Shown here: in pieces, positions 1 to 47,643 of the stretch
Layout: each line of letters opens with the position of its first letter
Numbering within the stretch: position 1 is the first letter of the stretch
Source: a virus
Reading direction: 5' to 3' (one strand)
Virus record (IMG/VR): IMGVR_UViG_3300031787_000011
DNA: 64,000 nucleotides
Notes under the pieces: generated by a model
The model's input: the letters and a program-made list of their open reading frames with translations, nothing else
Told to the model about the DNA's origin: nothing
The model's database searches: none
Made by a program: the position numbers and the translations under genes

Positions 1-3000
1 TGCCTGCGGAAGCTGGCAAAGCTTGGCTTATAAATTTTGACACAGCAGAAGGAATCACTTCTCTTTCTGCCAATTCATCTATTATGCTAGCGTAAGCTTG
101 TTTTTCAAAAAGCTCTAACGCTCCAGAAATTGGATTAGCAAGTTTTCCGCCTGATTTTCCGAAAAAACGAGATAATAAAGCTGTAGGAATTTTAGCAAAA
201 TTAGGAACTACGTCTTTTAACCCATTAGGCTCATCTCTTTTATTTGTTACCGCTATTGGATTTCCGCCTTCATCAAAATGAGCCATGATTTGAGAGGCTG
301 GTAAGCCGCTCATTGTTTTTTCTCTTCCTATGGCATCTGATAAGCCAGCAAAATTAGGAATATATCCTCCAGCTATTAGCTTTTCTTGCCGCAATATTTT
401 TTTGCTATAGCCTAGTCTATCAAGTAATTTAAGATGCTCTGGATTATCTGTATCTAAAACTCTTGTACCAAACAGCTGAGCCGAAGAGAAGAAAACACTA
501 CTTTTATTATCAGTTATTCCTGGGAATATTTCTTCTGCATTAATTGGTTTTGATATTGATGGGCCGACTTTTCCAGTCACTAGTATGGGATAACTTTTAT
601 GCTTACCAGGGACTTTAGACGCGTATTCTCCTTGTTGCATTGAAGCTATTGAAGATCCAAATGCATAAGCTCCTTTTGGTCCTCTCGCTTTAACTCCGCC
701 AGGCGCAAAAAATTTAACTAGTCTAGGATCTTTTAATTCATTTGCTGATTTAACTAATATTTTTTTATTAAATAAATCAGAGCTTAAAATATCAATAATG
801 CTTTTTATTTCTGATCCGCTATGAGAATTTAAAATTGATTTGACATTAAATCCTCGCTCAGAAAGAGAAGCTATTATTTCTTTTGGCTTTGGATGATTAG
901 CTAAAAATTGCTGTAAAAGAGCCTCATTAGTTTTTAAATTCTCTGGTACTAGATCGTTTACAGCGGAAGGGGCGACAACTGGGATGATTATGCTTTTAGT
1001 TACTCCAGCTTTTCGACTTGCATTTTTTAAAGCCGTTGTCGGAGATGTAGATCTAACTGCGCTGGCATACCCTTTGCCTATTCTTGATGCAGAAAAACCA
1101 ATTCCTCCAAATACTTCTCTTCCGATGATTTGAACGTCTCCAGTTTTCGAAATGTTTACTCCTTTTGCTCTACCTACTTTTAATGCATCGTAATATTTTG
1201 CAGCTATTAATATTTTAGCAAAATTAGGAACATATCCACTCGCCCTTCCCTCGATGCCAGATAAAGCGGATCTTACTGTCTCTGGGCTATATTTTTCTTT
1301 ATGTACGCTATTGGATTTAAAAATAGCAGCCTGCAAACCTGCTGCGCCAGTTTCTATTTGATGTGATTTAGCAAATTCATTAGCTAATGATATCAATTTT
1401 GCCGCTTCTGTTTTGCTAGGTTTTTTGCCTCCAAGGATAGCTTGGATTACATTTGTATCTATTGGAAAGGCTGTTTTATCTTGCAATATAGCTCTAGCGT
1501 AGTGTCTAGTTTTAGCCGTGTCGTCGCTTCCTAAATCAACCCCTCTTAAAGCCTTCGACAAACCATATCTTCTGGCATCATCTCTAGTTCTTATATTTCC
1601 TTCGGCAGATACTTCACCTTTTTTGCCGAATAAACCCAAAGACGCTACATTTTTGTGCCTGCTAACTATTTTTGATGGAGCTAAATCAAAATAATCTTCT
1701 ACATTAGTAGATCTTGTTTTCATGTACCTGTTGAATATTGGAGCCGCGAATTGAGCAGCTACATAATCAGGCACAGAAGGAGAAATAGCAGAAGTTATAT
1801 TAGCGTAAATTTTAGCTTCTTGTGGGGAAAGTTTTTTGCCACTAAATTCTTCGCCATGTATATTATAAAATCCTGCGTAATCCTTTCCTTGTTCATAATG
1901 CTTTTGAAATCTAGCAAAGATTTCTTTTTTGCCGATTCTTTGGATGATGTCTTTACGTTTTGCAAAATTAGGAATATACCCAGAACTCATTCTGGGAATG
2001 TCTTGCATTTTCCTATATTTAGGAATTATCGCGGTGTCTCCTGTGCCAGCAAAGTTAGGAATAACATCCTCTTCGCTATTGACCATTACTGGCTGAGTCT
2101 TGCCTTTAATTGTCGCTTGTATTAATTTAGCTTTTGGATTTTTAGCTCCATAAGCCTTGGCCATAGCGACCTCTTCTTGAGCTCCGCCAAATGTCGGGAC
2201 ATATCCAGAAGCTCTTACTCTGCTTGGGCCGCCTCTAGCGACAACTGTAGGAATTATTCTAGCCCTTAAAGCTTCTTGCGTTTTTAGTTGTTTATTTTGC
2301 TCTCTTAAAGTTTGTAATACTGCTTGCTCCGCTGCAGCCAATGAAATGGTTCCCTTTTGTACAAGAGCAACTAATTTAGGACTTTGTGATAAAACATCAT
2401 TAACAGCTTTTTGCGAAGCTAATGATTTTTCTCCAGCGAATACTTCATCAAAATTTTTACTTACATCTTTTATAGAACTAACTCCGAATTTAACCATCTT
2501 AGCTAACAAAGTGCCTCCGATTCCCACTAGAAGAGGGATGCTACCAGTCGCTATAGTTTTTCCAAGGGCAGAGGCGGCCCCTTTAAAAAAAGACTCTCCT
2601 ACAGATTTGCCGCTTTCCTCAGATTTTCCTAAAAGATCACTTGTAGGATTTACTGCTTTTAATAATATTTCAGAAAATGAACTACCGATCCTAACTAGTG
2701 GCTCTAACAATGGCTTACCTAATGCGGCAGCAGCTTCCTGAGCTTGGTTTTTTGTTTGTTGTAATAAAGCTGATAAGCTCTTATTTAATTCTTCGTTCTT
2801 TTTCTTAGCTTCATCTGTTGCTGCGCTAGAAATTTTTAAAGCACTAGCATAAACGCTATTTGAGCTAGAAAGATCTTTAATTAAAGCGTTAACTTGGTTG
2901 ATTTGGTAAATACCACCAATTAATTCTGCTGTTCTTGATTTTTCTATCTGACTTAAATTTTTTGTAGCATCAGCGTAATTCTTAAGCACGGACAAACCAT

Positions 3001-3829
3001 CCAATAAGAATCCATTTTGATCTTTAATAGCAACACCCAACTGCTCCAACTGACTAAGAACCTCTGGTCTTTGTAGGCGAGTAAATATTGTCTTTAAAGC
3101 GTTACCAATTACAGCGCCACCACGACCAGTTATTTGTTGAGCGGCTGTAACTGTAGCTATTAGCTTGTCTATGCTGATTCCGCTTTCTTCCGCAGAGCTA
3201 CCTACACGGCTAAGAGCCTCGTTCAATTGAGCAGAGCTAACAGCAAATCTTGTATCAACAGCAATTAACTTATTGACAATGTCTGTTGAGCTTAATGCTT
3301 CCTTATTGAAGCTGTTTATCGCAGTAGTGACACCATTTACAGCATCTGCATAACTAATTCCAGATATTCTTGCTAGTGTTAAAGCATCTTCTGTTCTTCT
3401 TAATACTTCATTAGCAGACAAACCTTGTCTTGCGAATTCTTTAGCAGCTTCAGAAGCGGCTTCGAAAGGAACAGCGGCATTTCTTGCTACTTTGAATAAC
3501 GACTGAGAAAACCCTTCTAGTTGATCTCTAGATTGGCCTAAAAATGTATTTAATTCTACAAGTTGCTTATCGATTTCTATTGTAGCTCTTGCACCAGCTC
3601 TAATAGCTTCTGAAACTTTGTAGATAGCGCCAGCAGTTAAACCGAAGGCTGTAACGCGGGCTGTAGCAGCTTCCAGAGATTTCCTGAATTCCGTGACATC
3701 TCCGCTTATTCTTCCCAGTGGTTGACCAAATTTAACAGAAGACGCTCTTCTACTAATACTATCAAAAGCTAAGTCTACCTGCTTTGTATTCGGTACAAGA
3801 TTTAAATTTACGTTTACATTAGCTGGCAT
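1..3829 (-). CDS. Tape measure protein (TP901-like N-terminal domain), 3' end beyond the window; contains PNFA-bounded inserted domains
   Basis: Manual translation from ATG at 3829 (MPANVNVNLV...AAKEFARQGLS...). The frame was open wherever checked down to position 2. It lies directly after the tail chaperones and tube. It is missing from the ORF track, consistent with no stop inside the window. Confidence 0.88.
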   Translation of the reverse strand, partial: MPANVNVNLNLVPNTKQVDLAFDSISRRASSVKFGQPLGRISGDVTEFRKSLEAATARVTAFGLTAGAIYKVSEAIRAGARATIEIDKQLVELNTFLGQSRDQLEGFSQSLFKVARNAAVPFEAASEAAKEFARQGLSANEVLRRTEDALTLARISGISYADAVNGVTTAINSFNKEALSSTDIVNKLIAVDTRFAVSSAQLNEALSRVGSSAEESGISIDKLIATVTAAQQITGRGGAVIGNALKTIFTRLQRPEVLSQLEQLGVAIKDQNGFLLDGLSVLKNYADATKNLSQIEKSRTAELIGGIYQINQVNALIKDLSSSNSVYASALKISSAATDEAKKKNEELNKSLSALLQQTKNQAQEAAAALGKPLLEPLVRIGSSFSEILLKAVNPTSDLLGKSEESGKSVGESFFKGAASALGKTIATGSIPLLVGIGGTLLAKMVKFGVSSIKDVSKNFDEVFAGEKSLASQKAVNDVLSQSPKLVALVQKGTISLAAAEQAVLQTLREQNKQLKTQEALRARIIPTVVARGGPSRVRASGYVPTFGGAQEEVAMAKAYGAKNPKAKLIQATIKGKTQPVMVNSEEDVIPNFAGTGDTAIIPKYRKMQDIPRMSSGYIPNFAKRKDIIQRIGKKEIFARFQKHYEQGKDYAGFYNIHGEEFSGKKLSPQEAKIYANITSAISPSVPDYVAAQFAAPIFNRYMKTRSTNVEDYFDLAPSKIVSRHKNVASLGLFGKKGEVSAEGNIRTRDDARRYGLSKALRGVDLGSDDTAKTRHYARAILQDKTAFPIDTNVIQAILGGKKPSKTEAAKLISLANEFAKSHQIETGAAGLQAAIFKSNSVHKEKYSPETVRSALSGIEGRASGYVPNFAKILIAAKYYDALKVGRAKGVNISKTGDVQIIGREVFGGIGFSASRIGKGYASAVRSTSPTTALKNASRKAGVTKSIIIPVVAPSAVNDLVPENLKTNEALLQQFLANHPKPKEIIASLSERGFNVKSILNSHSGSEIKSIIDILSSDLFNKKILVKSANELKDPRLVKFFAPGGVKARGPKGAYAFGSSIASMQQGEYASKVPGKHKSYPILVTGKVGPSISKPINAEEIFPGITDNKSSVFFSSAQLFGTRVLDTDNPEHLKLLDRLGYSKKILRQEKLIAGGYIPNFAGLSDAIGREKTMSGLPASQIMAHFDEGGNPIAVTNKRDEPNGLKDVVPNFAKIPTALLSRFFGKSGGKLANPISGALELFEKQAYASIIDELAEREVIPSAVSKFISQALPASAG

Positions 3830-9112: not shown

Positions 9113-10015
9113 TTAAATTTGGCCAGAAGGATCTGGGGCTACAACATCTACATGAGCAATGTCGCTAATTGTTTCTCCTGCAACATTATAAACTTTTACA
9201 GTATAATCTCCTGCGCTTGCTTCTGAGCCAGAATTTATATAATAATATTGGCTTATCTCTCCAGAAATTTCAGTTCCGTTCAAGTTCCATTGATAAGAAG
9301 GAGTTGGGTATCCAGATGCCATTACAGACATCCCAAAACTGTTTCCTGAAATTATTTGACCGCCGACTGGTTGATTAGTTATTACTGGAGCAATTGGAGG
9401 ATTTACTATCACTGCGCATCCTGAGCTAATAGCTGTTCCTAAAGAATTTGAGACTACAACATCGTAAGTTCCTGCTTGATCTAGTTGAATATTTGAAATT
9501 TGTAAACCAGCACCAGTTTCTTCTGTAAGATCAATTGCGTCTTTTCTCCACTGATAGTACAATGGTTGACCATCTACTCCAACGGAAATATAAGCTGTTT
9601 GCCCAGACCATAATGTAATTTGCCTTTGAGGCTGTATAGAAATAAATGGAGCAATAATTGGAAAAATATCAGCAGACCATGGATTTGGAGGAGTAACTAC
9701 GGGAGGAGTAATTTTATTTAAAATCTGCTGTATTGCTGCGCTTTCTTGGCTCTCCTTTTCGCCAGATGGCATGGCAGAATAAACCCAAGAAAAAACTTGA
9801 TCTTCTTTCAAATCAAGATATGGAGTAAATGGCCCTGGAGAAGAAGGAACAGAAGTCACACCATAAGTTCTGCCATAATATGGCCCACCGCTTGGACCAT
9901 TATAGTAAGCCAAACAATCCCAGTGAACATTAAATACGTAATCAGTGACGCCGCTAAATTCTGGATAGCAGTCCATTTGATTAACTTTCCATTTTAATTG
10001 GATGTCGGAGCTCAT
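9113..10015 (-). CDS. Virion protein with two C-terminal immunoglobulin-like (I-set type) domains
   Basis: Two P.I..QP...YQW...G..I....AG.Y.V.V.N..G repeats. Confidence 0.8.
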   Translation of the reverse strand: MSSDIQLKWKVNQMDCYPEFSGVTDYVFNVHWDCLAYYNGPSGGPYYGRTYGVTSVPSSPGPFTPYLDLKEDQVFSWVYSAMPSGEKESQESAAIQQILNKITPPVVTPPNPWSADIFPIIAPFISIQPQRQITLWSGQTAYISVGVDGQPLYYQWRKDAIDLTEETGAGLQISNIQLDQAGTYDVVVSNSLGTAISSGCAVIVNPPIAPVITNQPVGGQIISGNSFGMSVMASGYPTPSYQWNLNGTEISGEISQYYYINSGSEASAGDYTVKVYNVAGETISDIAHVDVVAPDPSGQI

Positions 10016-11401: not shown

Positions 11402-12112
11402 TTATAATCCAAATCTACTTTTAGTTGCGTTGTAATTTTGTAATATTTCTTGTGCCGAAAGCGTTCGGTTATATTGTTTAATAGTTGATAAATTAATATT
11501 GGCGTCAGGTCCTCCTAAATCTCCACCTATATAATAGAGATATCCAGAACCTGGATCTACAGAACCTCCTGAAGTTATAGAAACGGCGGCACCTTGTTGT
11601 ATACCATTTTTATAAAAAGTTATATTATTTGCACTTCTATTAACGACAGCGCTAACATTCATCCAAGTTAGTACATCAGTAAATGTCGCAACAGTTGAAT
11701 AATAAATGTTTTGATCAATATCAGTGGTAGTATTTAAAAAAAAGGCTACAGTCCCAGCCGTAGTGTAATTTAATAAAAATAAGAATCCATGTAAATTAGC
11801 ACCTCTCGCCTCTACTATTCCATTATATCCATTATCTTTTTGGTATACCCATGCATCTATCGTAAAGCTACTTAATCCTGGATTTAAACTAGCTGGATTA
11901 CTTACACTAATATAGTCATCTGTGCCATCAAAAACAATAGTTCCGCCATTTATATTGCTAAATGTGGGTCCATTGGTTAATGTTCCAATGTAACCAGTTC
12001 CGCTTAAATCTTTCCAAGTGGTACCTGTGCCAGAATAACTATTTTTATCAGCAGCATCTAAACACAATACCAATCCACTTCTAACTATTTTTGGGCCTCT
12101 TATTATTGCCAT
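11402..12112 (-). CDS. LamG-like domain virion protein
   Basis: GLVLCLDAAD...WKDLSG...FDGTDDY...EILQNYNATKSRFGL; start taken at MAIIRG. Confidence 0.8.
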   Translation of the reverse strand: MAIIRGPKIVRSGLVLCLDAADKNSYSGTGTTWKDLSGTGYIGTLTNGPTFSNINGGTIVFDGTDDYISVSNPASLNPGLSSFTIDAWVYQKDNGYNGIVEARGANLHGFLFLLNYTTAGTVAFFLNTTTDIDQNIYYSTVATFTDVLTWMNVSAVVNRSANNITFYKNGIQQGAAVSITSGGSVDPGSGYLYYIGGDLGGPDANINLSTIKQYNRTLSAQEILQNYNATKSRFGL

Positions 12113-12116
12113 AATT

Positions 12117-13289
12117 TTATAATCCAAATCTTGATTTTGTTGCGTTGTAATTTTGTAATACTTCCGCTGCTGTTAATGCTCTATTATAAATTCTAGCGTA
12201 GCCCATAGTCATATTTACATATAAATTAGAATACGCTAATCTTCCAATAAGCAACGGATTACTATTCGCGCTAGGCGTAGTAGGATACCCAGCACTATTG
12301 ATTTGATTGCCATTAACATAGTTTATTTGAGTTCCATATATTCCAGTTGATACTATATGATACCAAATCCCATTAGTAAAACTAGTATTGAATCCTAGCC
12401 CAGCATTATCTCCGACATATCTAAATAATAAATTTGTAGTTGATGCTGTATATGAATCTACTCTTATTTCATATCCGTCAGCGTTACTCAATGTTTTGCT
12501 TATGACTCCTCCGTATAGCTGTGTCTGAGTACCTAATTTTATAAAACACTCTAATGTTAAATTAGTCAAATTTGCTAAAACATTCCCGCAATTAATATGA
12601 TTGCTATTCGCTGGATTAAATGTTATGCTCCCTTTGCTTTCGCCGACAAATAGCGGGCCATTAGTTAGTGTTCCTGTATTATTATTACCACTTAAATCTT
12701 TCCAAATCGTATTTCCATAATAATATGGATTAAATTGTGTTGCGCTTGATGCTCTTTCTATTTGCAATCCATCCCACCAAATAGTTATACCAGAACCACC
12801 AGTATGTGTTCCATCTAATCTAAATTGAATATATCTAGTATTTGCATTTGTAAATGTATAACTGAAACTAAATCTTTGCCAGCTAGTCGTTATAGACATA
12901 TTTCCAGAACTATAATCATTTATAGTAAAAACCGCTCCATTGGTATCTGCGCCAAAAATAAATAATTGACCATCTGTGGCTACGCTCGCTTTTGCCCAAA
13001 CACTAATTGTCCAAGTTTGACCACTTAAAGCAGAAGCTAAATTAGCAGCAGAAGAACCATATTTTCCAGCATAAGCATCGTTGCCTGTTATTACCATTTT
13101 CATTGGCGTGGAACGATACTGTCTTATTATTGTAGTGTCTCTAGAAAGCGTGCAAGATTGTATTTCGCTTCCTATATTAGCAAATACGTCAGTAGGATTA
13201 GGTATAACATTCGGACTATAACTATTCATGTCCGCCGCATCCAATGCCAACACCAATCCATTCGTTGCTATTTTGGGGCCGTATTGCAT
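12117..13289 (-). CDS. LamG-like plus carbohydrate-binding-like domain virion protein
   Basis: Same N- and C-terminal motifs; inserted WQRFSFSYT/WWDGLQIE module. Confidence 0.78.
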   Translation of the reverse strand: MQYGPKIATNGLVLALDAADMNSYSPNVIPNPTDVFANIGSEIQSCTLSRDTTIIRQYRSTPMKMVITGNDAYAGKYGSSAANLASALSGQTWTISVWAKASVATDGQLFIFGADTNGAVFTINDYSSGNMSITTSWQRFSFSYTFTNANTRYIQFRLDGTHTGGSGITIWWDGLQIERASSATQFNPYYYGNTIWKDLSGNNNTGTLTNGPLFVGESKGSITFNPANSNHINCGNVLANLTNLTLECFIKLGTQTQLYGGVISKTLSNADGYEIRVDSYTASTTNLLFRYVGDNAGLGFNTSFTNGIWYHIVSTGIYGTQINYVNGNQINSAGYPTTPSANSNPLLIGRLAYSNLYVNMTMGYARIYNRALTAAEVLQNYNATKSRFGL

Positions 13290-13306
13290 GTATTATTGTT
13301 TACACT

Positions 13307-15382
13307 TTATAAACCGAATCGGCCTTTTGTAGCATTGTAATTTTGAAGAATTTCAGCAGCTGATAAAGCTCTATTGTAAACCAAAATACTTGCGATATCT
13401 AAATCTGTAAAATAACTTGTTCCCGCTCTAGATCCAATAAATAAATAATCATCTCCAAAATTATTAGTATTATTTGAAGCTAAACTAGGAAGAGGATTTG
13501 TTATAACAGTAGCTGCAACTCCTTGATTATATAAAGAAGCTTCTGCTGTAGTTTGACTTTTATCAAAAACAGCAGTGCTTATTTCCCAATTTAAATCATT
13601 ATAATTACTTTTATTCCAAACTCCTAAGTTATATCCATTGTTTCCTTTTACTCCTGCAAATACGTCATAATTTTGAGATGCAGAATTATCATTATATGTC
13701 CATACAAATCCATATTGAAAAGAATTAAAATCAGTAGATAATTCACATATAAATTTAGTATTTCCTGAAACTGGATACGATCTAGCTTTAAATATAACTA
13801 AAACAGTAACAGCATTATAAGCCGAAAGATTTAAGGTAGATGTAGTCTTAATATAATTATTTGTACCATTAAGAGAAAAATAACCATTAGAATTCCAAGT
13901 TGGAGAATTATAAAGCGTTGCATGATTACTATTACCACTAACATCATACCAAGTTGTACCTGCTCCAGCATAACTATATGGATTACCAGCATCAAGATTT
14001 AATACAAGACCTTGTTGTACTATTGTATTTGCAAATTTTGACTTTTGAGCTTCGTAATTTTGAGCAATTTCTACCGCGCTTAATGCTCTGCTATATATTA
14101 AGGTAGATCCTACATTAATTGGAGCATATCTTCCAGAAACGATATCGTCTCTAGCAATTATTAAGTCTCCGATTGTAGATCCAGAGTATGATATTGCAGA
14201 AGTATTTGCTGTTGTATTCGCAAGCACTCCATCTTTATAAACTTTTACATTTGAGCCATCAAAAGTACCCACTAGATTAGTCCAAGTATTTAATGGCATT
14301 GTAGTAGTAGCATCTATAACAGCGGCCGCAGCATTTCTAATTCTAAACCAAACAGTATCTGTATTATATGTCGCCATCAATGCGTATGCATCTCTGTCAT
14401 TTCTTCTTAAAAAATTGCATATACTTGATTGATAAGCGTTTCTTTTAAGCCACATTGAAACAGTAACTTTTGCAGGATTTAATATAACATTATCCGCCAC
14501 CACTAAATAATCAGAGGAGCCATCAAATCTAAGCGCTCCTTTATTATAATAATCTGCCGCAGGCATATCTGCTGTAGTACCATTACCAAGTAGCCCATGA
14601 TTATTATTTCCACTCAAATCAATTATACTTCTATCTGTATTAAGAATTCCCCATTTTTGGCCGAGATATGTATGGACTAATTTTCTTTCTGTAACTGATA
14701 ATAATCTATTAAAAACAATAATTTCAGCAACTTCACAATTGCTTAATTCAGCGCCATAAATATTTACTCCTAAATACCAAGGACCAGCATCTGCGCCTGT
14801 ACTATTCGTTGCTAATGCAGTTCCTGTTGCATAAAAATTTGCTGAATCATTTGATGGTCCACCCCAATCTCCTAAATATAATTTCCAATTAGTATCAGCA
14901 GCAGAATAAGTTTGATATACCCATCCATTTCCATAATATTTATTCGTTTCACTTGCCCAATGTCCTAAAAGCCAATTATTATAACTGCTATTTGAAGTTA
15001 AAATTCTTCCTGTTCCAGAAGATGCATTTGTATATCTATCAACTACAAAAATACTATACGCGCTATTTCTTAAATCTATTGTAGAATTTTGTATATTTTG
15101 AGCGGTAGTAAATGCTACTACTTTTCTAGAATTTTGAGAAGTACTACGTGTTGGTCCAGAAGATGGTGGCGTCATATGATAATTAAATCCACTTTTATCT
15201 CTCCATTGACTTACAGTAGTTCCTGAGCTATAACTAAATGTTGTATCATCCGCAGCATCTAGCCATAAAATCAATCCACCTTTCACAGGCAAATCTATGG
15301 CTGGATAAGATTTATTATGGGAAGGATCTAAAGATAAGACCAGATTTTCTGTTGTTATTTTTGGATTATAATGTTGAGCCAT
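13307..15382 (-). CDS. Multi-LamG-like domain virion protein
   Basis: Three LamG-type modules; ends EILQNYNATKGRFGL. Confidence 0.8.
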   Translation of the reverse strand: MAQHYNPKITTENLVLSLDPSHNKSYPAIDLPVKGGLILWLDAADDTTFSYSSGTTVSQWRDKSGFNYHMTPPSSGPTRSTSQNSRKVVAFTTAQNIQNSTIDLRNSAYSIFVVDRYTNASSGTGRILTSNSSYNNWLLGHWASETNKYYGNGWVYQTYSAADTNWKLYLGDWGGPSNDSANFYATGTALATNSTGADAGPWYLGVNIYGAELSNCEVAEIIVFNRLLSVTERKLVHTYLGQKWGILNTDRSIIDLSGNNNHGLLGNGTTADMPAADYYNKGALRFDGSSDYLVVADNVILNPAKVTVSMWLKRNAYQSSICNFLRRNDRDAYALMATYNTDTVWFRIRNAAAAVIDATTTMPLNTWTNLVGTFDGSNVKVYKDGVLANTTANTSAISYSGSTIGDLIIARDDIVSGRYAPINVGSTLIYSRALSAVEIAQNYEAQKSKFANTIVQQGLVLNLDAGNPYSYAGAGTTWYDVSGNSNHATLYNSPTWNSNGYFSLNGTNNYIKTTSTLNLSAYNAVTVLVIFKARSYPVSGNTKFICELSTDFNSFQYGFVWTYNDNSASQNYDVFAGVKGNNGYNLGVWNKSNYNDLNWEISTAVFDKSQTTAEASLYNQGVAATVITNPLPSLASNNTNNFGDDYLFIGSRAGTSYFTDLDIASILVYNRALSAAEILQNYNATKGRFGL

Positions 15383-15385
15383 ATA

Positions 15386-17521
15386 TTATTTTCCGAATCT
15401 AAATTTTGTTGCGTCGTAATTTTGAAGAACTTCTTCAGCCGATAATACTCTATTATACAATTTTACTTGACTAATACTTGCAGCTATAGTATAATTATTA
15501 TCTCCGTGAAATCTTCCTATCCAAAAATTATTTGAAGTCGTTGATGTAGTATTTCTATAAGCCGCAGTTCCGATTAATATACCGTCAATATACAATTTGG
15601 CATTTGTGGATGAATCATTAGTTACGACGATATAATGCCATTTGGCATCTGGATATGAACTGTTTGTGAATGGGTTGCTTTCACTATCACCGGTGTTCCA
15701 GTTTATATAATTTCCAGAAAAATAAAGATTTGGTCCAGATCCATAATTATCGCTGTCAATTGAAATTGGAATTTTTACAGCATAATTTGATGATCGTATC
15801 CAAATTGCAATGGTTGATGATGCGGGAATATTTGTTACGGATGAAACAGAATAATCATCTACACCGTCAAAACTTATACATTTTGGTTCGGTTGATATAA
15901 AAGAAGGACCATTAGTTAATGTACTATTATAACTATTTCCACTTAAGTCTCTCCACGAAGTCCCACTTCCGGAATAACTACTATAAACATCAGCATCTAC
16001 ATAAAATTGTAAACCATTAGTTACAATATTCGGTAAACTAGCAAATTCCGATTTACTTTGTTCATAATTTTGTAAAATTTCTGAAGCAGTTAACGCTTTA
16101 CCATATATTTTACAACCGGCAACATAACCATCTAACATCCTCCCATATGTAGAAGCTCCTTCAGCGCCTATTCCTAAATAGTTTGTTATATTGATAGTTC
16201 CTATGGTGAAAGTAGTTGATGAAGTTTTATCTAATACGCCATTCAAGTACCATCTTATATATGCCCCATCGAACGTCCAAACCACATGGTTCCATGCGTG
16301 TCTTGTTACCGATGTTGTGCTTGGCTGATGACCCACAGTAGAACCAGCGGAGCCATACATAAATGCATTAAATTTTCCATTGCCATCTAACGACAAATAA
16401 AAATTGCTATTAGCAATCATTATAGCCCCTAAATCAGTATTTGTTCCAGCAAAACTAAAACTATTTGGTTTAACCCATGCTTCTAATGTAATTGAAGTTG
16501 TTATAACTGAACTCATCCACGAAATAGAATCAGCAAAATAAAAATTGCTTTGTAATGGAGAACCTGTTGCATTTGCGGGATTTAATCTATAAGACTTGTC
16601 AATAACAGGTATATTATTATTTTGACATGTCGCTACTTTGCCAAAAACTAAATCTCTATTTGTTAATGTAGTTTGTAATAATGGTATTCTCCATTTATTA
16701 GCTAAATAATTATGAACTTGGGATCTTTCTATGGCGGATAATTGTCTACTATAAATAATTAATTCTCCGATATCTCCATAGTATGGCTGATTGGCTGATG
16801 TATTGACGGCCCCCATAAACAAATTAAAACCAGCCCCTCCTATTGTTATTGTTTGAGTCCCGGAAGAGTATAAATCAGGTCGTTGTCTTCCATTCGCATA
16901 AATTATATTTGTGCCGCTTCCCGCATTGGTATGAGAAAATGTAATTAAAGTTGGAGACCCTTGCAAAAAGTCAGAATTAGTATTTGGACTTGTTAATGGA
17001 AGAACTGTAACATTTCCACCACCCCCATTCCAATATACCCATAATGTTCTTGCGTAATTTGATCCATCTGGATCATTTACATCGAAATGAAGATTATTTG
17101 TGTTTGTGCCATTATTTATACTGAATGGATATTGATAAGTTGTGCTATTTACATCCCCCCGCATCACTAAAAATATTGTAAATTCGGTATATGATGTTGT
17201 AAATGGGCCGTAGATATAGTCATTCGCGCTAAATCTCATGGTATTTCTACCATTCAACCCACCAAGAACTGATAATGGTTCATTTGCAAGCGTTAGCCCA
17301 CCGCCAGTTAATACTAAATTACTATTTGATTTATCTCCCCAATATCTTACATTTCTAGTACTAGTTTCGGTTGTGATTGTAGATAGATCATCTGCGTCAA
17401 ACCAAGTAATGCAACCATTAATTTGTTTTGGTGTTTTGATAAAACCTGCGCTAACTGATGGATCTAGAGCAAAAGCAAGAGCAGATGTTACTGTACTTGG
17501 TCCTGAATTGATTGTACTCAT
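15386..17521 (-). CDS. Multi-LamG-like domain virion protein
   Basis: Three LamG-type modules; ends EVLQNYDATKFRFGK. Confidence 0.8.
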   Translation of the reverse strand: MSTINSGPSTVTSALAFALDPSVSAGFIKTPKQINGCITWFDADDLSTITTETSTRNVRYWGDKSNSNLVLTGGGLTLANEPLSVLGGLNGRNTMRFSANDYIYGPFTTSYTEFTIFLVMRGDVNSTTYQYPFSINNGTNTNNLHFDVNDPDGSNYARTLWVYWNGGGGNVTVLPLTSPNTNSDFLQGSPTLITFSHTNAGSGTNIIYANGRQRPDLYSSGTQTITIGGAGFNLFMGAVNTSANQPYYGDIGELIIYSRQLSAIERSQVHNYLANKWRIPLLQTTLTNRDLVFGKVATCQNNNIPVIDKSYRLNPANATGSPLQSNFYFADSISWMSSVITTSITLEAWVKPNSFSFAGTNTDLGAIMIANSNFYLSLDGNGKFNAFMYGSAGSTVGHQPSTTSVTRHAWNHVVWTFDGAYIRWYLNGVLDKTSSTTFTIGTINITNYLGIGAEGASTYGRMLDGYVAGCKIYGKALTASEILQNYEQSKSEFASLPNIVTNGLQFYVDADVYSSYSGSGTSWRDLSGNSYNSTLTNGPSFISTEPKCISFDGVDDYSVSSVTNIPASSTIAIWIRSSNYAVKIPISIDSDNYGSGPNLYFSGNYINWNTGDSESNPFTNSSYPDAKWHYIVVTNDSSTNAKLYIDGILIGTAAYRNTTSTTSNNFWIGRFHGDNNYTIAASISQVKLYNRVLSAEEVLQNYDATKFRFGK

Positions 17522-17524
17522 ATT

Positions 17525-18766
17525 TTATATTCCATAAGTTTTACGAGTTGCATTGAAATTTTGTAATACTTCTGCGGCAGTTAATGCGCGATTATAAGCT
17601 CTTGCAGTTGATACAATTGAATTACTTGCATAATCTGTACTTGCCGCTCCAATATAATATGGAACTGTCGATGAGTATTGTCTTAATTGTTTAGTTAATG
17701 TCGCGCTGTCTCTTAATACGCCATTTACATATAAATATCTCATAGCATTTTCAACATCATTCACAAAAACACCATGATACCAAGTGTTTAAACTCAATGT
17801 TACGCCAAGACCTGAATTTGTTACATCATTATACCATGTAATTGCATAAATAACATTTGGAGATCCTTTATCATGATTAAATCCACTATGATATCCTTGT
17901 CTTCCAAAAAAATATCCATTATATAATCCCGGCGGAGTTCCTAATAATTTAAACCAACATTCATATGTATGACTATTGTTACTTAAATTATCTAATATAG
18001 AATTGGCAACTGGAGTTGTTATTGCACCTTGAGAATTTGCATTAAAATAATATCCTCCACTATCAAAAGCTATAGCAGAACTGGTAAGATCAATATTATA
18101 ATTATTTCCACTTAAATCTATTAATCCGCCTCCACCAGCAATAGTATTTGCAGATCTAGAGCCTAAAACTAAAGGAGTAGAATATGCTTTCTGTTCTATT
18201 TGATATCCAAAATATGCAAGTTTTTCGCCGACATTATCGCCAGTATAACTACTCATATATACTCCAGTTTCATTTGATGGAGTAGTAAATGTTATTGATA
18301 GTCTAATCCAAGTTCTTCTTGGCCAATTTAAATAATTTGTATCACCATTATACGCAAAATTACCTAATGAATTATTATTTACGTTTGTCCTTAAATATGG
18401 TTGGGACTGCATCGATGTTCCATCAAACCAATAATAAATGGACATCGCATATTGAGTGCTTGGAGAAATCGGAATAATAGAAGAGCCCAACTGTTGATTG
18501 CCAGTGGCAGTCACAGTTGAGCTAAAGATTCGTAAATTAGTAGTATCTACATTTAAAATGACAGGCTTTGATATAGAGGTATCATTATCATTGAAAATAG
18601 TAGAACCTGAATTTACCCACCAATTACCATTGGAGTTTAAGTAATTATTGGTAGAATAAGCGATATTTGTAGTGGCCTGACCTCGAAAACTTTTAGCATA
18701 TTCACGATTATAATATAACTGTAAATCTTTTTTTACTATTCCTCTATTGGCATGCTGTACGGCCAT
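17525..18766 (-). CDS. LamG-like domain virion protein
   Basis: WYHGVFV...YLYVNG...EVLQNFNATRKTYGI. Confidence 0.78.
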   Translation of the reverse strand: MAVQHANRGIVKKDLQLYYNREYAKSFRGQATTNIAYSTNNYLNSNGNWWVNSGSTIFNDNDTSISKPVILNVDTTNLRIFSSTVTATGNQQLGSSIIPISPSTQYAMSIYYWFDGTSMQSQPYLRTNVNNNSLGNFAYNGDTNYLNWPRRTWIRLSITFTTPSNETGVYMSSYTGDNVGEKLAYFGYQIEQKAYSTPLVLGSRSANTIAGGGGLIDLSGNNYNIDLTSSAIAFDSGGYYFNANSQGAITTPVANSILDNLSNNSHTYECWFKLLGTPPGLYNGYFFGRQGYHSGFNHDKGSPNVIYAITWYNDVTNSGLGVTLSLNTWYHGVFVNDVENAMRYLYVNGVLRDSATLTKQLRQYSSTVPYYIGAASTDYASNSIVSTARAYNRALTAAEVLQNFNATRKTYGI

Positions 18767-19750: not shown

Positions 19751-22700
19751 TTATCTTCTTTCTAAAGCAGTTACTCTAGATTTTAGCTCATTAATTTGCG
19801 CCTGCTGCTCTTTTATAGCTTCTGCTAACACTGCTGTTATTCTTGGATAATCTAAAGATCTAGCGTCTGGGCAATCATCATTTAATTTCCAAGTACTTAC
19901 TAGTTCGGGTAATACTTGCTCTAATTCTTGCGCAATAAATCCGATAACAGGAGTATTTAAACTATAACCGTCTCTTGTATTGTTTATGAATTCATTCCAT
20001 TCGTATGTTACGCCGCGCAACTTCATTACTTTTTGGAGCGCGTTTTCAATTGGTTTTATATTTTTCTTGAATCTTAAGTCTGATGACGTTGGGAATGAGG
20101 TCGCATGAGCATTACCATTAACATCCAAAGTATAAGCTGGGGTTACCCCTACACCTAATATATAAGTTCCGGGGCTAACTTGATTTGATAAAAATAATTT
20201 GTCTGAGCCGCTGTACCATCTTAATACATCACCAGCTACTCCATTTTGCAAGTAATTGTACCATTTTGTAGCACCTGCGTCTTGGAATTGAATGCCTCCT
20301 TGGTAACTAGTGCTTGATCTATTTATAATATAATAAGCTGCTCCCGCACCGCCGTTTAATGTCACAGTAGATGTTCCATCGTCAGTTTCAAGAGAATTTC
20401 CAAGAGTAGTAGTATTTGTAAATTTAGCTATTCTATTTGTTGTACCGCTTGCATTTGCTGCGCCTTGAGACCCAGTGCTACCTTGAGACCCAGTGCTGCC
20501 TTGAGAACCTAAGCTTCCAGTACCGCCAGTGCCGCCTTGAGATCCTATGGCTCCTGTACCGCCAGTACCACCTTGAGACCCAGTGCTACCTTGAGATCCA
20601 GTGCTACCTTGAGACCCAGTGCTGCCTTGAGAACCTAAGCTTCCAGTACCGCCAGTGCCGCCTTGAGAGCCTAAGCTTCCAGTACCGCCAGTGCCGCCTG
20701 TCCCGCCAGTACCCCCTGTTCCGCCAGTGCCGCCAGTGCCGCCTTGAGAACCTAAGCTTCCAGTACCGCCTGTTCCGCCAGTACCACCTGTTCCGCCAGT
20801 GCCGCCAGTGCCGCCTTGAGAGCCTAAGCTTCCAGTACCGCCAGTGCCGCCTGTCCCGCCAGTACCACCTGTTCCGCCAGTGCCGCCTGTCCCGCCAGTG
20901 CCGCCTGTTCCGCCAGTACCACCAGTGCCGCCTGTTCCGCCAGTAGCAGCGATAGAATCTAAAACATCGTAAGTGTTAGCGGAAGATAAATACCAAACTA
21001 ATGGGACCGTTGATGTTGGATTCGGAGTCCCATTTAAGGCGAAAAAGTTTGTAGAACTAAAAGTTCCTGTATTTCCGGCCTTTACGATCATGCAATACTC
21101 TTCCCATTTTCCTGTGCCAAGAGTAGAGGTAGTCCAATAAGATGTTCCGTTAGTACCAATAGAATTACTATGGAAACTAAGCGAATATCCAACAGGTATT
21201 TTAGCTACAAATACGCAAGCAAAAACAGAATTAGCTCTAGTATTATCCGCAAAATACCATCCTCCAAAATAAGGCGACGTTGCAGCAGAAGTATGAGTTA
21301 TTCTTACTACGTATCCGCTATTATTTGGAGCTCCTAAACCAGTCGAAGCTATTCTAGCTATAGATATGGTCCCTGTGGCGTTGTTATCGTAAATGTTTAT
21401 TCCATTTAAGTTATTATCAATGAATGTTTCGTTATTGTGTAAAGACTTGCCTCTTCTATAAGTATCAAAACCTATAGTAGACTGACCTAATTCTACAGTC
21501 GCCGCTGTGGCGAAAGAAGTTTGGCTCCTTATATTTAGATCTCCTATTAAATTTAAAGTTGATCCATTAAAAGTCAAATTAGACTCTCCATTAGCCCCGG
21601 CTCCTCCAGTGGCAGTAAGAATATAATCATTTACATTGTTAGTAAGCGCTACTGAAGAGCCTTGAGATCCTAAACTTCCAGTGCCGCCAGTGCCACCCGT
21701 TCCGCCAGTACCACCTGTTCCGCCAGTGCCGCCTTGAGAGCCTAAGCTTCCAGTACCGCCAGTGCCGCCTGTTCCGCCAGTACCACCAGTGCCGCCTGTT
21801 CCGCCTGTTCCGCCAGTACCACCAGTGCCGCCTTGAGAGCCTAAGCTTCCAGTACCGCCAGTGCCGCCTGTTCCGCCTGTTCCGCCAGTACCACCAGTGC
21901 CGCCTTGAGAACCCAAACTTCCAGTACCGCCAGTGCCGCCTGTTCCGCCAGTGCCGCCTGTTCCGCCAGTGCCGCCTGTTCCGCCAGTACCACCAGTGCC
22001 GCCTTGAGAACCCAAGCTTCCAGTCCCACCTGTGCCGCCAGATGTTCCAGATGTCCCAGATGTTCCAGAGCTTGCGGCATTGACTTTTGTCTTAACTGTT
22101 CCATCAGCGTCTATGACTAAACAATTTGTGCTTGAGCTTGCAGATATTCCAGTAAATCTGATAGTACCAGAAACATCTAAAGTATAAAGAGGGTTGCTTT
22201 GGCCTATTCCAACTTTATTATTTTTAAGAACAAAATCGCCGCTTCCATATTGCCCCAATACAACTCTATCATCAGCGAAGACTTCCATCACTGGCAATCC
22301 TGCACTATTATTTACAGACATTAATGAATCTGATAAATCATCAATTACAGAAAAGAGTGTCCCGTTTGTGCCGTCCGCCCTGAGTAATGTAGCGCCAGAT
22401 GTAGTTGAATTTAAATGCAATCTACCAAGAGGACTTGTAGTGCCGATACCAACATTACCACCATCAGCTTTGATGGTCATGCGGGTGGTCATTGTGCTAC
22501 TTACATTTTGTCTAAAATAAATATCTCCATAAACTTGAGAAGAAGTTACTGGATACGTATTATCAATGTAAGATACAGCGAAATTTGGATTATATATTAA
22601 ATGCAATCCATGAGCATCAGAAACTCCATAACTTATTTTTATGCCCTGATCGCTATTTGCAGAACTTGTTATTCTAACAAATGGATTTGCCCCGTGAATA

Positions 22701-25700
22701 TGCAGCAATGTAGCAGGGCTTGTTGTGCCTATGCCTACATTACCTCCTTGCAAGATTGTCAAAGTATCAGCGCCAACACTATTTTTAAAATAAGTTGCAG
22801 TGGAACTTCCAGCATAATAATTGGCGTTATAAATTCCAGATCCCACAACAAGATTTGTTCCAATATTAGCATCTCCATTAACGTCTAATTTCCGCGATGG
22901 ACCTGTTGAGCCAATGCCAACATTTCCATTACTTAACATTACAAAACTATTACCAAAATTAGATTTATAAGATAATGTAGCTAAATTATTACCAGTTCCT
23001 GTAGCGTCTGCATCTACCCAATTCCAACCATCTGCATAAGCATCATTATAAGCGCTACTGTACATGCTTTCAACATACAATTTAGGCCAGTAGCCCGGAC
23101 TTACTAATACAATACAAACTTTAAGTACGCCGGAAGAATCCCAGTCTTCGGCAGACAATTTAACTGTTGGGGCAAAGCTGCCTGCTGAAGTAATTGTCGC
23201 GTTATAAAAAGTGCTTAAATAATAATGCCAACAAATCATTAAATTAGTAGTTTCTGCGCTACCATATCTGAATCCTTTAATATTGATGGTAAAATCTGCT
23301 GCAGCAGATGCAAACGGAATTTTTGTTCTTATTTTTATGAAGCTTGGAGTAACTTGGCTATTTATATCCAAACCGATCATTGTTAATTTACTACCATCAC
23401 CAAAACTAGCTTCTCCATTAACAGCCAATTTAACAGATGGATTTGTTTCGCCTATTCCAACTTTATTGCCACTTATTATAAAATCTCCGCTATTAAATTG
23501 TCCGGCTTTTATTGTATTATTAGCGAATACTTCTAGTACAGGTAAACCTGCTATAGTATTTACAGACATCAAAGAATCAGATAAATCATCTGTTATTGAA
23601 AAAAGCGCTCCATTTGTGCCGTCGGCTTTCAATACTGTTTCGCCAGTAGTTGTTGAAACTACATGAAGTTTTCCGCTAGGTTGAACTGTACCGATGCCAA
23701 TACTTCTATTGTGCCCAACTGACATCATCACTTCAGGAGTAACATTTTGGACTCTATTTATAGCGAAGTCTATTCTTGTATCTGTATTTGTATTCCAATA
23801 AGGAGTAATTTGAGCGAGATAACCAGTACTAGCATCAAATCTTAATTGAAGGCCTTTGCCTTGAGTAGAGGCTACATCTAAATTAAAAAGCGCGCCTCCT
23901 AAATTGCCTAAGCCAAGATAACCATTACTATTAAGAACAAAAACATTACTTGCGTTTACGTTATTGTTATAAGCTATATTTAAATAATTAGTGTCAAGGC
24001 CAACAGAATAAAAGATGCCGTTGTTTCTTTGGAGTCTTAATACTTCAGAAAATGCCCCTAATGCATTATTAACATGTAAACCGCCAGAAGGAGTAGTTGT
24101 TCCTATGCCTATATTGCCATTAACATCTTGATATATTGTAGAATTATTAAGGGTACTCGCTGAATTAAATTTTGAGATATAACCCGAACTCCCTGACAAA
24201 CTTGCGCTAGACCCGGCGGATCCTGTACTTCCAAGGCTTCCAGTGCCACCAGTCCCGCCAGTCCCACCAGTACCGCCAGTGCCGCCAGTGCCGCCTGTTC
24301 CGCCAGTACCACCTGTTCCGCCAGTGCCGCCAGTGCCGCCTTGAGAGCCTAAACTTCCAGTACCGCCAGTGCCGCCTGTCCCGCCAGTGCCGCCTGTTCC
24401 GCCAGTACCACCTGTTCCGCCAGTGCCGCCAGTGCCGCCTTGAGAACCCAAGCTTCCAGTACCGCCAGTGCCGCCTGTTCCGCCAGTACCACCAGTGCCG
24501 CCTGTTCCGCCTGTTCCGCCAGTACCACCAGTGCCGCCTTGAGAGCCTAAGCTTCCAGTACCGCCAGTGCCGCCTGTCCCGCCAGTGCCGCCTGTTCCGC
24601 CAGTACCACCTGTTCCGCCAGTGCCGCCAGTGCCGCCTTGAGAACCTAAGCTTCCAGTCCCACCTGTGCCGCCAGATGTCCCAGAAGTTCCAGATGTTCC
24701 AGAACTTGCGGCGTTAACTTTCGTCTTTACTGTCCCGTCGGCATCTATCACCAAGCAATTTGTGCTTGAACTTGCGGATATTCCTGTAAATCTAATTGTA
24801 CCGCTAACATCAAGAGTATATAGGGGATTATTTTGTCCAATTCCTACTTTATTGTTTTTTAATACGAAGTCTCCACTGCCATATTGACCAAGAACAACTC
24901 TGTCATCTGCAAAAACTTCCATTACTGGGAGTCCTGCAGAATTATTAACAGACATTAAAGAATCACTCAAGTCATCAATTACTGAAAATATTGTTCCATT
25001 CGTTCCATCGGCGCGAATTAATGTGGCTCCTGCTGTTGTTGAATTTACATGCAATTTACCAGATGGAGTGGTCGTGCCTATGCCAACATTACCATCTGCT
25101 CGTATATAAACTGTATTATTATTTGATGAAGAATGAAATGCGATAGGGCCAGCATTATAGATATTAAAAGCGCCAGCGCCACCATAAGTAGTATATCCCG
25201 CGCTAGCTTTAAATATATAAGCCGAGCCTACTCCATTAGCTGTAAATTCTATTTCAGAATACTGATTAGCACTTGGGCTTTGCAGACTTAGTAGAGTTCC
25301 GTCTCCATATACTGTGAGTTTTCTATTTGGAGTTGTCGTACCTATACCAACATTATTTCCTGAGCTGATATATAAACTTGTATTTCCATTATTGATTAAA
25401 GAAGTAGAATTTAAGCTAAATAAAATAGAATTATTATTACCATCTATTACGGATGCGTATCTATCTGATATTATGCGAGAACTGGCAGCTATTTCTCCTA
25501 TCACGGACAAATTAGTGGCAGGATTTGTTGTCCCGATCCCGACATTTCCATTATTTTTTATTACCAATGCATTTATTACGTTCGCTGATGTAAATGAACC
25601 GGTAGCTACATCCATGAATCCAAATACTTTATAACCAACAGCCGGAGCAAAACCTTCGAAATATGGTCTATAAGCTTGAGTGGGTTCAACTGTACCAGCT

Positions 25701-45659: not shown

Positions 45660-45807
45660 CCCGCTGGCGCATTTTGTCCAATTGCAAATCGAGTGCAAAT
45701 GCCAATAAATAACGATAACGTAACCGGGGCCGCTGTAGGGGTAGCGGAAGGCGTTTTCGATTCAAAAGGTAACGATAACGAAAGCATTGCAGCTCTAGGT
45801 ATGTTTT

Positions 45808-46018
45808 GGGGGGGTTGGGGGCAGGCAGGCAGGCGGGGCAGGCAGGCAGGCGGGGCAGGCAGGCAGGCAGGCAGGCAGGCGGGGGCAGGCAGGCGGGGGC
45901 AGGCAGGCGGGGGCAGGCAGGCAGGCAGGCGGGGGCAGGCGGGGGCAGGCAGGCGGGGGCAGGCAGGCAGGCAGGCGGGGGCAGGCGGGGGCAGGCAGGC
46001 AGGCGGGGCAGGGGCAGG
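45808..46018 (+). repeat. G-rich tandem repeat (GGCA)n interrupted by G4-5 runs
   Basis: About 200 bp with no T on the plus strand after 45816. Confidence 0.95.
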
Positions 46019-46023
46019 AAACG

Positions 46024-46052: not shown

Positions 46053-46071
46053 GTGAGCGGGGGCCGGAGGT

Positions 46072-46335: not shown

Positions 46336-46355
46336 GCTGTAGCTTTTCGGATCGG

Positions 46356-46481: not shown

Positions 46482-46547
46482 TCACTCGTCTGACAGGACC
46501 GCCAGCACCGCCAGCAGCAGGGCCAGCAGCAGGGCCACCGCGATCAT
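46482..46547 (-). CDS. 21-aa hydrophobic micropeptide MIAVALLLALLLAVLAVLSDE
   Basis: ATGA overlap with the DUF932 stop; ends immediately before the terminator. Confidence 0.6.
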   Translation of the reverse strand: MIAVALLLALLLAVLAVLSDE

Positions 46548-47542
46548 GCGACGGTGACCGCCCCCCGGCGAGCATCCGCCAGCGCGTCCGCGCCTTCCGC
46601 CGCCATCCGATCCCATCCGCCCGGGGCCGCGATTGCCGCCGCAAACGCTGACTTGCGGTCAGCGTTGCCCCCGAATTCGGAGGACTGCCACCGGCCAAAC
46701 GCATCCCGACGGGAGGAGGAGCCGACCAGCCCTTGCCCGAAAACCTCGGTGAAACCGTTCAGAACGTCCAACCGGGACGTTCCCGCATTGCCCCGGCCCG
46801 ACCGGAAACCCGCGACCAGATCGTCCAGCAGGTTGCTGGACCGCGCCGACCGCAGATCCGCCCCGTTCCCGGCGAGGTCCGCCGCGTACACCGCCCGGGC
46901 CTTGTCCGCCGTAGCGGGGAGGGCTTCAAGCCCCCGCAGGGTCTCGTTCCAGATCTTCGCCATGCCTACCGTCTCGCCCAGAGCGCCCCGGGAAGCCTCC
47001 AGCCGTCCCGCGAAACCCTTGGTGAGTTTCGAGGAAAACAACGCCCGACCCGCCCGGGCAACCCGGACCGTGTTTGCGCACACGGCGACCGTGTGCGTCA
47101 AATTGAAGGATGGCGATTGGCTCTTGTCCAATCCTCCCGAGGCGGTCAGCTTGAACGCCTCCCCCCGAGGGGCGACCCCGGCCAACTCATCCAAGGAAAA
47201 GGTGACGAACCACCGCGACCTGTCGAAGATCATCCCCAACGATTCCACCCGGTGACCCGTCCCGGCCAGCACCTCTTCGAGGTAGGCCATAGCGTCCCGG
47301 GGAGTGAAAAGGGAATAAGAGGCCCCGAAAGCGGTCCCCACCGGAAGGCCATCGTCCGCCGAGATCGGAACGGCCATCCCGTCCCACTCCCGCAACTGGT
47401 CGCCCACCGTGTAGGTCAGGGGGGCGGCGATGATTTCCGGGAAAGCATCCGCCCCGATCACCGGGAGAATCCGGGTCTGACGGTGCCACGCCTGCTCAAG
47501 CCCGACTTGAAAGTCGCGGCTGGTTTCGAGTCCTGATGACAT
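46544..47542 (-). CDS. DUF932 / phage-plasmid LGT-associated protein
   Basis: AWH motif, VESLG, VAVCANTVRVA, GTSRLDVLNGFTE. Confidence 0.75.
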   Translation of the reverse strand: MSSGLETSRDFQVGLEQAWHRQTRILPVIGADAFPEIIAAPLTYTVGDQLREWDGMAVPISADDGLPVGTAFGASYSLFTPRDAMAYLEEVLAGTGHRVESLGMIFDRSRWFVTFSLDELAGVAPRGEAFKLTASGGLDKSQSPSFNLTHTVAVCANTVRVARAGRALFSSKLTKGFAGRLEASRGALGETVGMAKIWNETLRGLEALPATADKARAVYAADLAGNGADLRSARSSNLLDDLVAGFRSGRGNAGTSRLDVLNGFTEVFGQGLVGSSSRRDAFGRWQSSEFGGNADRKSAFAAAIAAPGGWDRMAAEGADALADARRGAVTVA

Positions 47543-47562
47543 AACTTTGGATTGCTGAACTA

Positions 47563-47643
47563 ACAACCGGGAACCCCCCGGCGGGGGCCGGTGGAACGCC
47601 CACCGACAGGGACACTCTCCGCGATTGCCTTTCCGCCGTCAAA
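47563..47643 (-). promoter_or_regulatory. Promoter plus double-hairpin leader, copy 2
   Basis: TTGACG-17-GAGAGT and the same hairpins with a different loop. Confidence 0.75.

Follow-up and report, generated by a model that had tools for sequence, protein, structure and literature searches.

Domains exchanged at a repeated PNFA heptad inside the tape measure protein of a large uncultured phage

Why should a tape measure protein (TMP), a kind of protein usually treated as a ruler and channel former with one lytic domain at most, carry the same short peptide again and again, and what are the domains that lie between the copies? The question is raised by the 64,000-nucleotide stretch of virus DNA analysed here, from IMG/VR record IMGVR_UViG_3300031787_000011 (the window). 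Its minus-strand open reading frame (ORF) 2..3829 is a single open frame of 1276 codons that runs off the start of the window, and by its family matches it is the N-terminal 1276 amino acids (aa) of a TMP of the TP901 type. A first-pass annotation, made from the letters, had called it just that, and the profile searches bear it out: TIGR01760 covers aa 70-380 with 128.8 bits (cut-off 28.8), PF10145 scores 94.9 bits (cut-off 33.2), and many PHROG tape-measure families match, solely inside the first ~575 residues. The annotation had also listed six related motifs in the frame, with two unrelated domains of roughly 240 and 280 aa between them. All six motifs are where it placed them, and the domains measure 243 aa (aa 624-866) and 285 aa (aa 872-1156). 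Our answer, in brief, is that domains are exchanged in this protein at the motif, which is well supported, and that the TMP consists of a constant backbone and a central bay of swappable cassettes that probably serve as accessory payload. The features of the gene, in the order of the protein, are these.

2..3829, minus strand: TMP gene, first 1276 codons, an open frame whose 3' end lies past the window start
2690..3622, minus strand: TP901-family core domain (TIGR01760, PF10145, PHROG), aa 70-380, inside the conserved backbone segment aa 1-543
2186..2206, minus strand: motif 1, degenerate GYVPTFG, aa 542-548 (GYVPTF, aa 542-547, is 2206-2189)
2048..2065, minus strand: motif 2, VIPNFA, aa 589-594, preceded by a conserved 41-aa linker
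1961..1981, minus strand: motif 3, GYIPNFA, aa 617-623, preceded by a conserved 24-aa linker; the point where relatives carry extra cassettes
1232..1960, minus strand: cassette 1, family F, aa 624-866, 243 aa, basic, probably DUF7178-like
1217..1237, minus strand: motif 4, GYVPNFA, aa 865-871, boundary of cassettes 1 and 2
362..1216, minus strand: cassette 2, family N, aa 872-1156, 285 aa
347..367, minus strand: motif 5, GYIPNFA, aa 1155-1161
209..346, minus strand: conserved acidic 46-aa module, aa 1162-1207, between motifs 5 and 6
194..211, minus strand: motif 6, VVPNFA, aa 1207-1212
2..193, minus strand: beginning of the long conserved C-terminal backbone (segment B, ~748 aa in the contig L002)

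PNFA occurs five times in the window TMP, where 0.012 occurrences would be expected from the composition of the protein. Elsewhere in the 64-kb window the six-frame translations contain just one PNFA, part of an NPNFA in a 2809-aa fibre ORF, outside the [IV]P context. Motif 1, which is degenerate here, reads GYLPNFA or GYIPNFA in the relatives. The 84 copies from ten related TMPs give the consensus [AS]-x-G-[YR]-[VI]-P-N-F-A, with the proline and the phenylalanine present in 84/84 and the asparagine in 82/84, and small, linker-like residues lie upstream. The DNA is another matter: 61 copies use 27 different 15-nucleotide (nt) words. Selection is therefore on the peptide and not on a DNA site, and for the same reason we reject the idea of a site-specific recombination site. 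The motif is conserved as protein and not as DNA. The codons do show some preference. In near and distant relatives alike, CCT makes up 63-68% of the proline codons of the motif but 38-39% of those in the rest of the same genes, and in close relatives isoleucine is ATT in 29/31 copies against 42% elsewhere; the p-values are inflated because the copies are not independent. The asparagine, phenylalanine and alanine codons match the background. Homogenisation by recombination may account for the over-use of CCT and ATT. A literature search with the motif strings found no paper describing the heptad.

A search with aa 540-1276 returned 19 metagenomic proteins, and the motif is in every one. For seven full-length relatives with DNA we divided the proteins at their motif copies and grouped the resulting pieces by clustering. 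Every relative has a core that is 36-51% identical to that of the window. Relatives that are 70-98% identical keep the backbone while their cassette arrays differ, from two to five cassettes. The constant parts are the core of ~543 aa, the linkers of 41 and 24 aa, the 46-aa acidic module, a ~740-aa segment, a mosaic segment that spans 715-1117 aa, a piece of 32 aa and a tail of 77 aa. Conservation is highest in the 46-aa module, with 47-100% identity over the aligned part in the 17 relatives that match. The bay that varies is the region between the 24-aa linker and this module, and it is filled as follows, with letters for cassette families and u for pieces given by length.

Window: F-N (F is cassette 1, N is cassette 2)
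L007 and L008: P-J-F-H
L003: u193-J-F-N-O
L009: J-L (L is Pfam DUF7178)
L010: P-Q-F-H-O
L011: J-F-H-S-R
L012: P-Q-DUF7178-H-O
P0005: u166-L
P0006: Q-L-u339

At least 12 unrelated cassette families thus sit in arrays of two to five on one backbone. F is found in some relatives only, and the two cassettes of the window make the shortest array found. Distant relatives, reached through the 46-aa module, usually have one cassette in the bay. The alignment of related TMPs that the first-pass annotation had proposed as a check is not colinear across the segments: the arrays are swapped and the motifs are kept. The C-terminal segment is mosaic in another manner. From the GVPNFAMA copy to the penultimate motif (L002:841-1611 and its equivalents in L003, L007 and L009-L012, 715-1117 aa) its ends are conserved and its middle is replaced, and the internal breakpoints are free of motifs.

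The junctions themselves can be read at the level of DNA. Compared by blastn with L007, which is ~96% identical, the gene falls into blocks at gene nt 1-1866, 1855-2616 and 3469-3828. These are aa 1-622, 619-872 and 1157-1276, and each block ends in or adjoining a motif. Blocks 1 and 2 overlap by 12 nt (nt 1855-1866) that encode the I-P-N-F of motif 3; block 2 stops one codon past motif 4 (aa 872); block 3 begins at motif 5. It follows that the window differs from L007, in being without P-J, by an exact in-frame deletion or insertion from motif to motif, and it has N where L007 has H. The same pattern of junctions is seen against L003, L010 and L011. From motif 5 onward the contig L002 and the window are identical (100% over window 1-361), and the upstream part of L002 differs and is the end of an H-type cassette. 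The claim that the motifs mark boundaries of cassette exchange, which the first-pass annotation had put forward, stands on these comparisons, in which relatives lose, gain or replace cassettes and keep the motifs, with the joins in the DNA lying within the codons of the motif.

The lineage is widespread. This stretch is present in 20 public runs from 19 studies (2016-2025), mostly from lake, reservoir, estuary, aquaculture and other fresh water with eight labelled "fungus metagenome", and 48 IMG/VR loci were found via the 46-aa module. We compared Logan contigs from four runs that carry no flag as a possible source of the window (X5, X8, X13 and X18). In each of X13, X8 and X18 a single contig spans, at ~97-98% identity, the stretch from the conserved module through N and motif 4 to F, so the arrangement of the window is real and recurrent. 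The X13 contig carries 535 extra nt at window 1962-1975 (motif 3); with the 14-nt overlap this makes 183 codons, the size of J plus one motif. That of X18 has 1411 extra nt at window 1964-1983, also in motif 3. The contigs diverge from the window at 368/373 (motif 5; X5 and X8), at 1217 (motif 4; X8) and at 1964/1983 (motif 3). Several other divergence points (926, 2946, 3016 and 3445) are off any motif.

Could the arrays be chimeric metagenome assemblies that jumped between motif repeats? The assemblies are short-read throughout, the motif DNA is repeated 9-12 times per gene, and one contig, L001, has two frame-breaking deletions relative to L007, all of which would suit such an artefact. Assembler k-mers, however, are usually longer than 14-20 nt (Logan is believed to use k=31), and the exact DNA that motif copies have in common is only ~14-20 nt, which makes chimeric assembly an unlikely cause. 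The frames of 2,760-3,712 aa are open in every full-length relative, 5 contigs (JGI, NCBI and Logan) encode one and the same 3,692-aa protein, and the F-N arrangement is bridged in three unrelated studies between 2016 and 2025. We regard the artefact as very improbable indeed. As for L001, its gene is 99.8-100% identical to that of L007 and is without 277 nt and 65 nt, the first deletion ending just past motif 2; it is either a defective population variant or an assembly error.

The cassettes also have a history that differs from that of the backbone. Between the window and L003 the synonymous divergence (dS) falls from 1.47 for the core to 0.61 for F and 0.35 for N, so the ancestry of the cassettes is more recent than that of the backbone, and this fits lateral exchange. 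Both cassettes are under purifying selection: the ratio of nonsynonymous to synonymous divergence (dN/dS) is 0.04-0.13 for F and 0.20-0.21 for N, compared with 0.04-0.10 for the core.

What then are the cassettes? By eye, the first-pass annotation had likened domain 1 to helix-hairpin-helix (HhH) glycosylase-like phage domains. The strings it quoted (AGFY, SAISP, KTRHY, FPIDTNVIQA and LQAAIF, and HKSYP in domain 2) are all present, and the likeness itself did not hold. F has no Pfam match at E<=10, no PHROG match and no PDB sequence match at E<=10 with a single sequence or a profile, so an HhH-GPD DNA glycosylase is without support. The pattern that was noticed is that of DUF7178 (PF23802), a family without known function or structure. 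By language-model similarity in the Atlas all 30 of the clusters nearest to F are DUF7178, with a best score of 0.96, and with relatives of F it is the one family to give a match, a sub-threshold one (E 0.061 in one relative, and 12.8 bits for the complete copy on the contig L006). The two share the collinear motifs SA[IL]SP, K-[TR]-x-x-[FY]-A, [IV]D and QAxx[FW]. The genome L012 has a 39.5-bit DUF7178 in the very slot that F fills in its sister genome L010. Against this, F does not reach the Pfam gathering score of 27 bits, the window domain having no hit at E<=10; hhalign of F with DUF7178, with thin alignments, is non-significant, but it is also weak between two true DUF7178 members. We conclude from these resemblances that F is probably a divergent DUF7178-like domain and we treat membership in the family proper as a lead. 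DUF7178 is also seen in Atlas clusters of 195-239-aa phage proteins. A PDB profile search with the DUF7178 cassettes gave nothing meaningful, a literature search on the family gave nothing relevant, and a search for stand-alone homologues of F gave fragments only.

For cassette 2 (N) just two homologues turned up in a set of 1.84 billion representative proteins. Both are in TMP-like proteins, and these searches place the family nowhere but in such TMPs. Cassette H is a distant relative of N (hhalign E 7e-5 over 229 columns). In the joint N/H alignment, at ~25% identity, the invariant residues are Y9, D10, a GG pair, S188, H206, Y209, P210, R252 and D257. The HKSYP that had been picked out in domain 2 turns out to be part of an H..YP signature that is invariant in N/H. 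An ADP-ribosyltransferase (ART), a weak lead from the Atlas, found no support: the Atlas score of 0.79-0.80 is in the chance range, there is no Pfam ART match, and the ART triad (R-S-E/H-Y-E) does not fit N/H, which has no invariant glutamate and has its invariant arginine after the serine. Searches of the PDB with N and with N/H, by single sequence and by profile, gave nothing meaningful, and a search for stand-alone N/H homologues gave fragments only.

Structure prediction adds a little. From shallow alignments, the AlphaFold2 (AF2) model of F has ~15 short helices at pLDDT 45, too poor for fold comparison, and that of N is mixed alpha/beta at pLDDT 51 with 76 residues >=70; a fold search was uninformative. 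As modelled, F and N look unlike the long coiled coils of a TMP, and neither model is strong enough to demonstrate an independent fold or an enzyme. The label "enzyme-like" that the domains had first been given is thus unproven, since both models are of low confidence.

It is fair to ask whether the cassettes do anything at all beyond adding length. TMP length sets tail length, and they might be length modules only, tuning the tail to something such as the thickness of the host envelope, with no function in the host. F is predicted to be all-helical and the gain and loss of cassettes is largely colinear, both of which would agree with this. Other features speak against it. Aromatic residues make up 7-13% of the cassettes against 4.6-6% of the backbone, and alanine is mostly lower in them. 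F is modelled with short helices in place of long coiled coils, and N with beta strands. The N/H pair retains distinct motifs and invariant polar residues (S, H, D and R) at 25% identity, and one slot holds a bona fide Pfam domain family, DUF7178. We find it improbable that the cassettes are spacers. All parts of the TMP are basic and cysteine-free, and the pI of each of the two window cassettes is near 10. Cysteine is in fact at zero in the 1276 residues of the window and at zero in the homologous TMPs (L002, L003 and L007), up to 3,697 aa.

We therefore return to the reading that we favour and consider probable, a constant backbone with a central bay of swappable cassettes that are accessory payload. 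The backbone consists of the TP901 core, the two short linkers, the 46-aa acidic module and the C-terminal ~1,600 aa, and the bay holds a variable array of independent cassettes, each framed by G-[YR]-[IV]-P-N-F-A. All copies of the heptad are in one reading frame, so crossovers between them delete, insert or replace whole cassettes and leave the ORF intact. Such crossovers would take place within one gene or between co-infecting relatives. The cassettes would leave the tail with the TMP ahead of the DNA and would act on or in the host, and the heptad may also have a role as protein, as a release site or a docking element.

Several points weigh against this reading. No cassette of the window has an assigned function or a confident fold, and so "payload" is read from the architecture alone. 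For the most part the cassettes keep a colinear order (P first, Q/J next, and after them F, N/H and O/S/R in turn), so much of the variation may be loss and gain and not free shuffling. The sequences compared are all metagenome assemblies. The constant backbone has copies of the motif too, at the border of segments B and M and, in two cases, close to the C-terminus, which means that the peptide has a role beyond fencing cassettes. Finally there is the matter of space. Three copies per tail are reported for the TMPs of other phages, and folded domains of 27-32 kDa in three copies would not fit the lumen of a siphophage tube. The cassettes would have to be stored extended or unfolded.

Two ideas about the peptide deserve attention here. 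One extends the payload model to a polyprotein, in which the heptad is a cleavage site, autoproteolytic at the invariant asparagine or cut by a phage or host protease, and the TMP is cut after tail assembly or ejection into free cassettes that act separately in the host. P-N-F is near-invariant in the protein while the codons vary, and the small residues before it resemble a linker. The copies in the backbone suit this idea as well, and one of them is always 77-78 aa from the C-terminus, which is reminiscent of the C-terminal trimming of lambda gpH. Polyvalent proteins, to which we return below, are thought to be processed on deployment (PMC5512222). Yet cutting ahead of tail assembly would destroy the ruler, and gp96, the sole characterised TMP that bears an enzyme, is uncleaved in virions (PMC10770324). 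Pfam finds no peptidase domain in the window TMP or in the full-length relative P0021. In a complete relative of 174.5 kb the motif-coding pattern occurs 9 times, every one within the TMP gene. A general virion-protease site is therefore unlikely, and the absence of the motif from every other gene also tells against the polyprotein. We think cleavage is conceivable and somewhat doubtful. More doubtful again is its most ambitious form, an injection polyprotein in which the heptad is the release site and two to five interchangeable effectors, for anti-defence or host takeover for example, are pre-loaded in the tail tube, enter ahead of the DNA and are freed in the cell, the magazine being re-equipped by in-frame recombination.

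The other idea is that the heptad serves for docking or for register, with the cassettes remaining covalently attached. Its partner might be the tail-assembly chaperone or the tube lumen, or it might staple the three TMP chains together, and its part as a recombination joint would be a by-product of repetition. The motif is confined to the TMP in the complete relative, its copies are spread over the whole protein after the core and not just at the borders of cassettes, and the best-conserved piece, the 46-aa module, is held between two of them. In lambda the chaperones bind the TMP along its length. A fixed register sits oddly, however, with a copy number that runs from 2 to 12 among relatives with similar backbones, and no binding partner has been identified. 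We would give docking about the same modest chance as cleavage.

How does the payload reading, which we continue to prefer, compare with systems that are already known? Some TMPs carry domains that degrade the cell wall, among them T5 pb2, TP901-1 Tmp, SPbeta CwlP/YomI and that of mycobacteriophage TM4. Those entry enzymes belong to known families of peptidoglycan hydrolases or peptidases, and a TMP usually has a single one, close to its C-terminus. The window TMP is unlike them, for Pfam detects no lysozyme, SLT or M23 domain in it. Pfam recognises the TMP core alone in P0001 and P0021, gives no match in P0002, and in P0004 gives just weak sub-threshold matches to unrelated families. The difference here is a conserved in-frame joint and the exchange of whole domains inside the TMP of a lineage.

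A closer comparison is gp96 of the Thermus siphophage P23-45, a giant TMP of 5,002 aa with an N-terminal virion RNA polymerase, which is carried in the virion and acts early on the phage DNA (PMC10770324). It is like our protein in having a domain that is not ruler, and it demonstrates that a TMP can carry an active enzyme. It differs in that it has one N-terminal enzyme of known activity and no array, delimiting motif or reported exchange, whereas the lineage of the window has 2-5 internal cassettes fenced by the heptad.

The polyvalent proteins of phages and conjugative elements (Iyer et al. 2017, PMC5512222) are very large and highly mosaic, with unrelated effector domains; they presumably go into the host together with the DNA and come apart when they are deployed. 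The window lineage shares with them a giant protein in which unrelated domains are found in mosaic combinations. Their signature domains (MPTase, ART, ArdC-N, methylases, PBECR and others) are not found by Pfam in the window TMP, and that paper describes no conserved delimiting heptad and has 0 mentions of tape measure proteins. Since TMPs are ejected, our protein too may enter the host with the DNA. A 2026 report describes the TMP-related effectors of Sle1-type contractile injection systems of actinobacteria as a reconfigurable platform (PMC13277306). There too a TMP-derived scaffold carries an exchangeable functional domain that differs between relatives; the Sle1 protein is the cargo of a cellular injection system with a single variable C-terminal domain, and not a phage ruler.

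If the cassettes act in the host, the lineage would offer a tail-borne counterpart of the head-packaged polyvalent proteins and a pool of early-acting phage proteins that are uncharacterised. The heptad is in any case a simple search handle for payload bays in metagenomes, and it also suggests itself as a design rule for building foreign domains into a TMP while tail assembly stays intact. A motif-fenced layout may also exist outside TMPs. The ENA contig L006 has at 144-2768 an 874-codon stop-to-stop frame that reads motif, F-like domain, motif, 67 aa, motif, a PcfJ-containing 442 aa, motif and 99 aa. There is no TMP core within the 143 nt available upstream, and the neighbours are non-tail genes (a kinase and DUF924/PP-loop).

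The surroundings of the gene agree with a TMP. It stands at the end of the late structural module, with an Ig-domain tail protein (9113..10015) upstream and ORFs of 237 and 331 aa directly upstream. In L003 the order is an Ig-domain tail protein, five ORFs without family match, the TMP and four large genes, and the genes after the TMP in L002 and L003 are of 634-639, 603-608, 596 and 1150 aa. We thus find a tail protein and ORFs in the chaperone position upstream and large distal-tail genes downstream. L002 extends the frame to 1730 aa in all, of which ~1,580 residues are past the window edge, and so the complete TMP would be ~2,850 aa. A hydropathy scan of the part in the window gave no clear transmembrane helix, and the sole clearly hydrophobic stretch found is in the mosaic C-terminal segment. 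The phage is large (~175 kb), uncultured, freshwater and of the non-contractile-tail type. Cultured phages gave no DNA match and only protein matches limited to the TMP core, at 23-28% identity. The 46-aa module has no relative in 185,579 prokaryote species genomes, which leaves no hint of a prophage or a host. In the window, scans with Rfam and for tRNA genes found nothing.

A few other parts of the window may be mentioned. The 2809-aa ORF at 19751-28180 (minus strand) is probably a giant tail fibre, to judge from the Peptidase_S74 intramolecular chaperone domain at its C-terminal end (aa 2700-2761); its GC content is raised (0.43-0.49) in parts. At 45,700-47,900 there is a GC-rich island, 64-77% GC against ~35% elsewhere, with overlapping ORFs in all frames, among them a minus-strand ORF of 340 aa (46544..47566) with a match to Pfam DUF932 (E 4e-7). 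The island may be a foreign insert or an assembly chimera. Finally, five consecutive minus-strand ORFs at 11402-18766 (241, 390, 691, 711 and 413 aa) all match phrog_8510 and phrog_24074, families of virion proteins, and on these matches the group looks like a paralogous array of structural genes.

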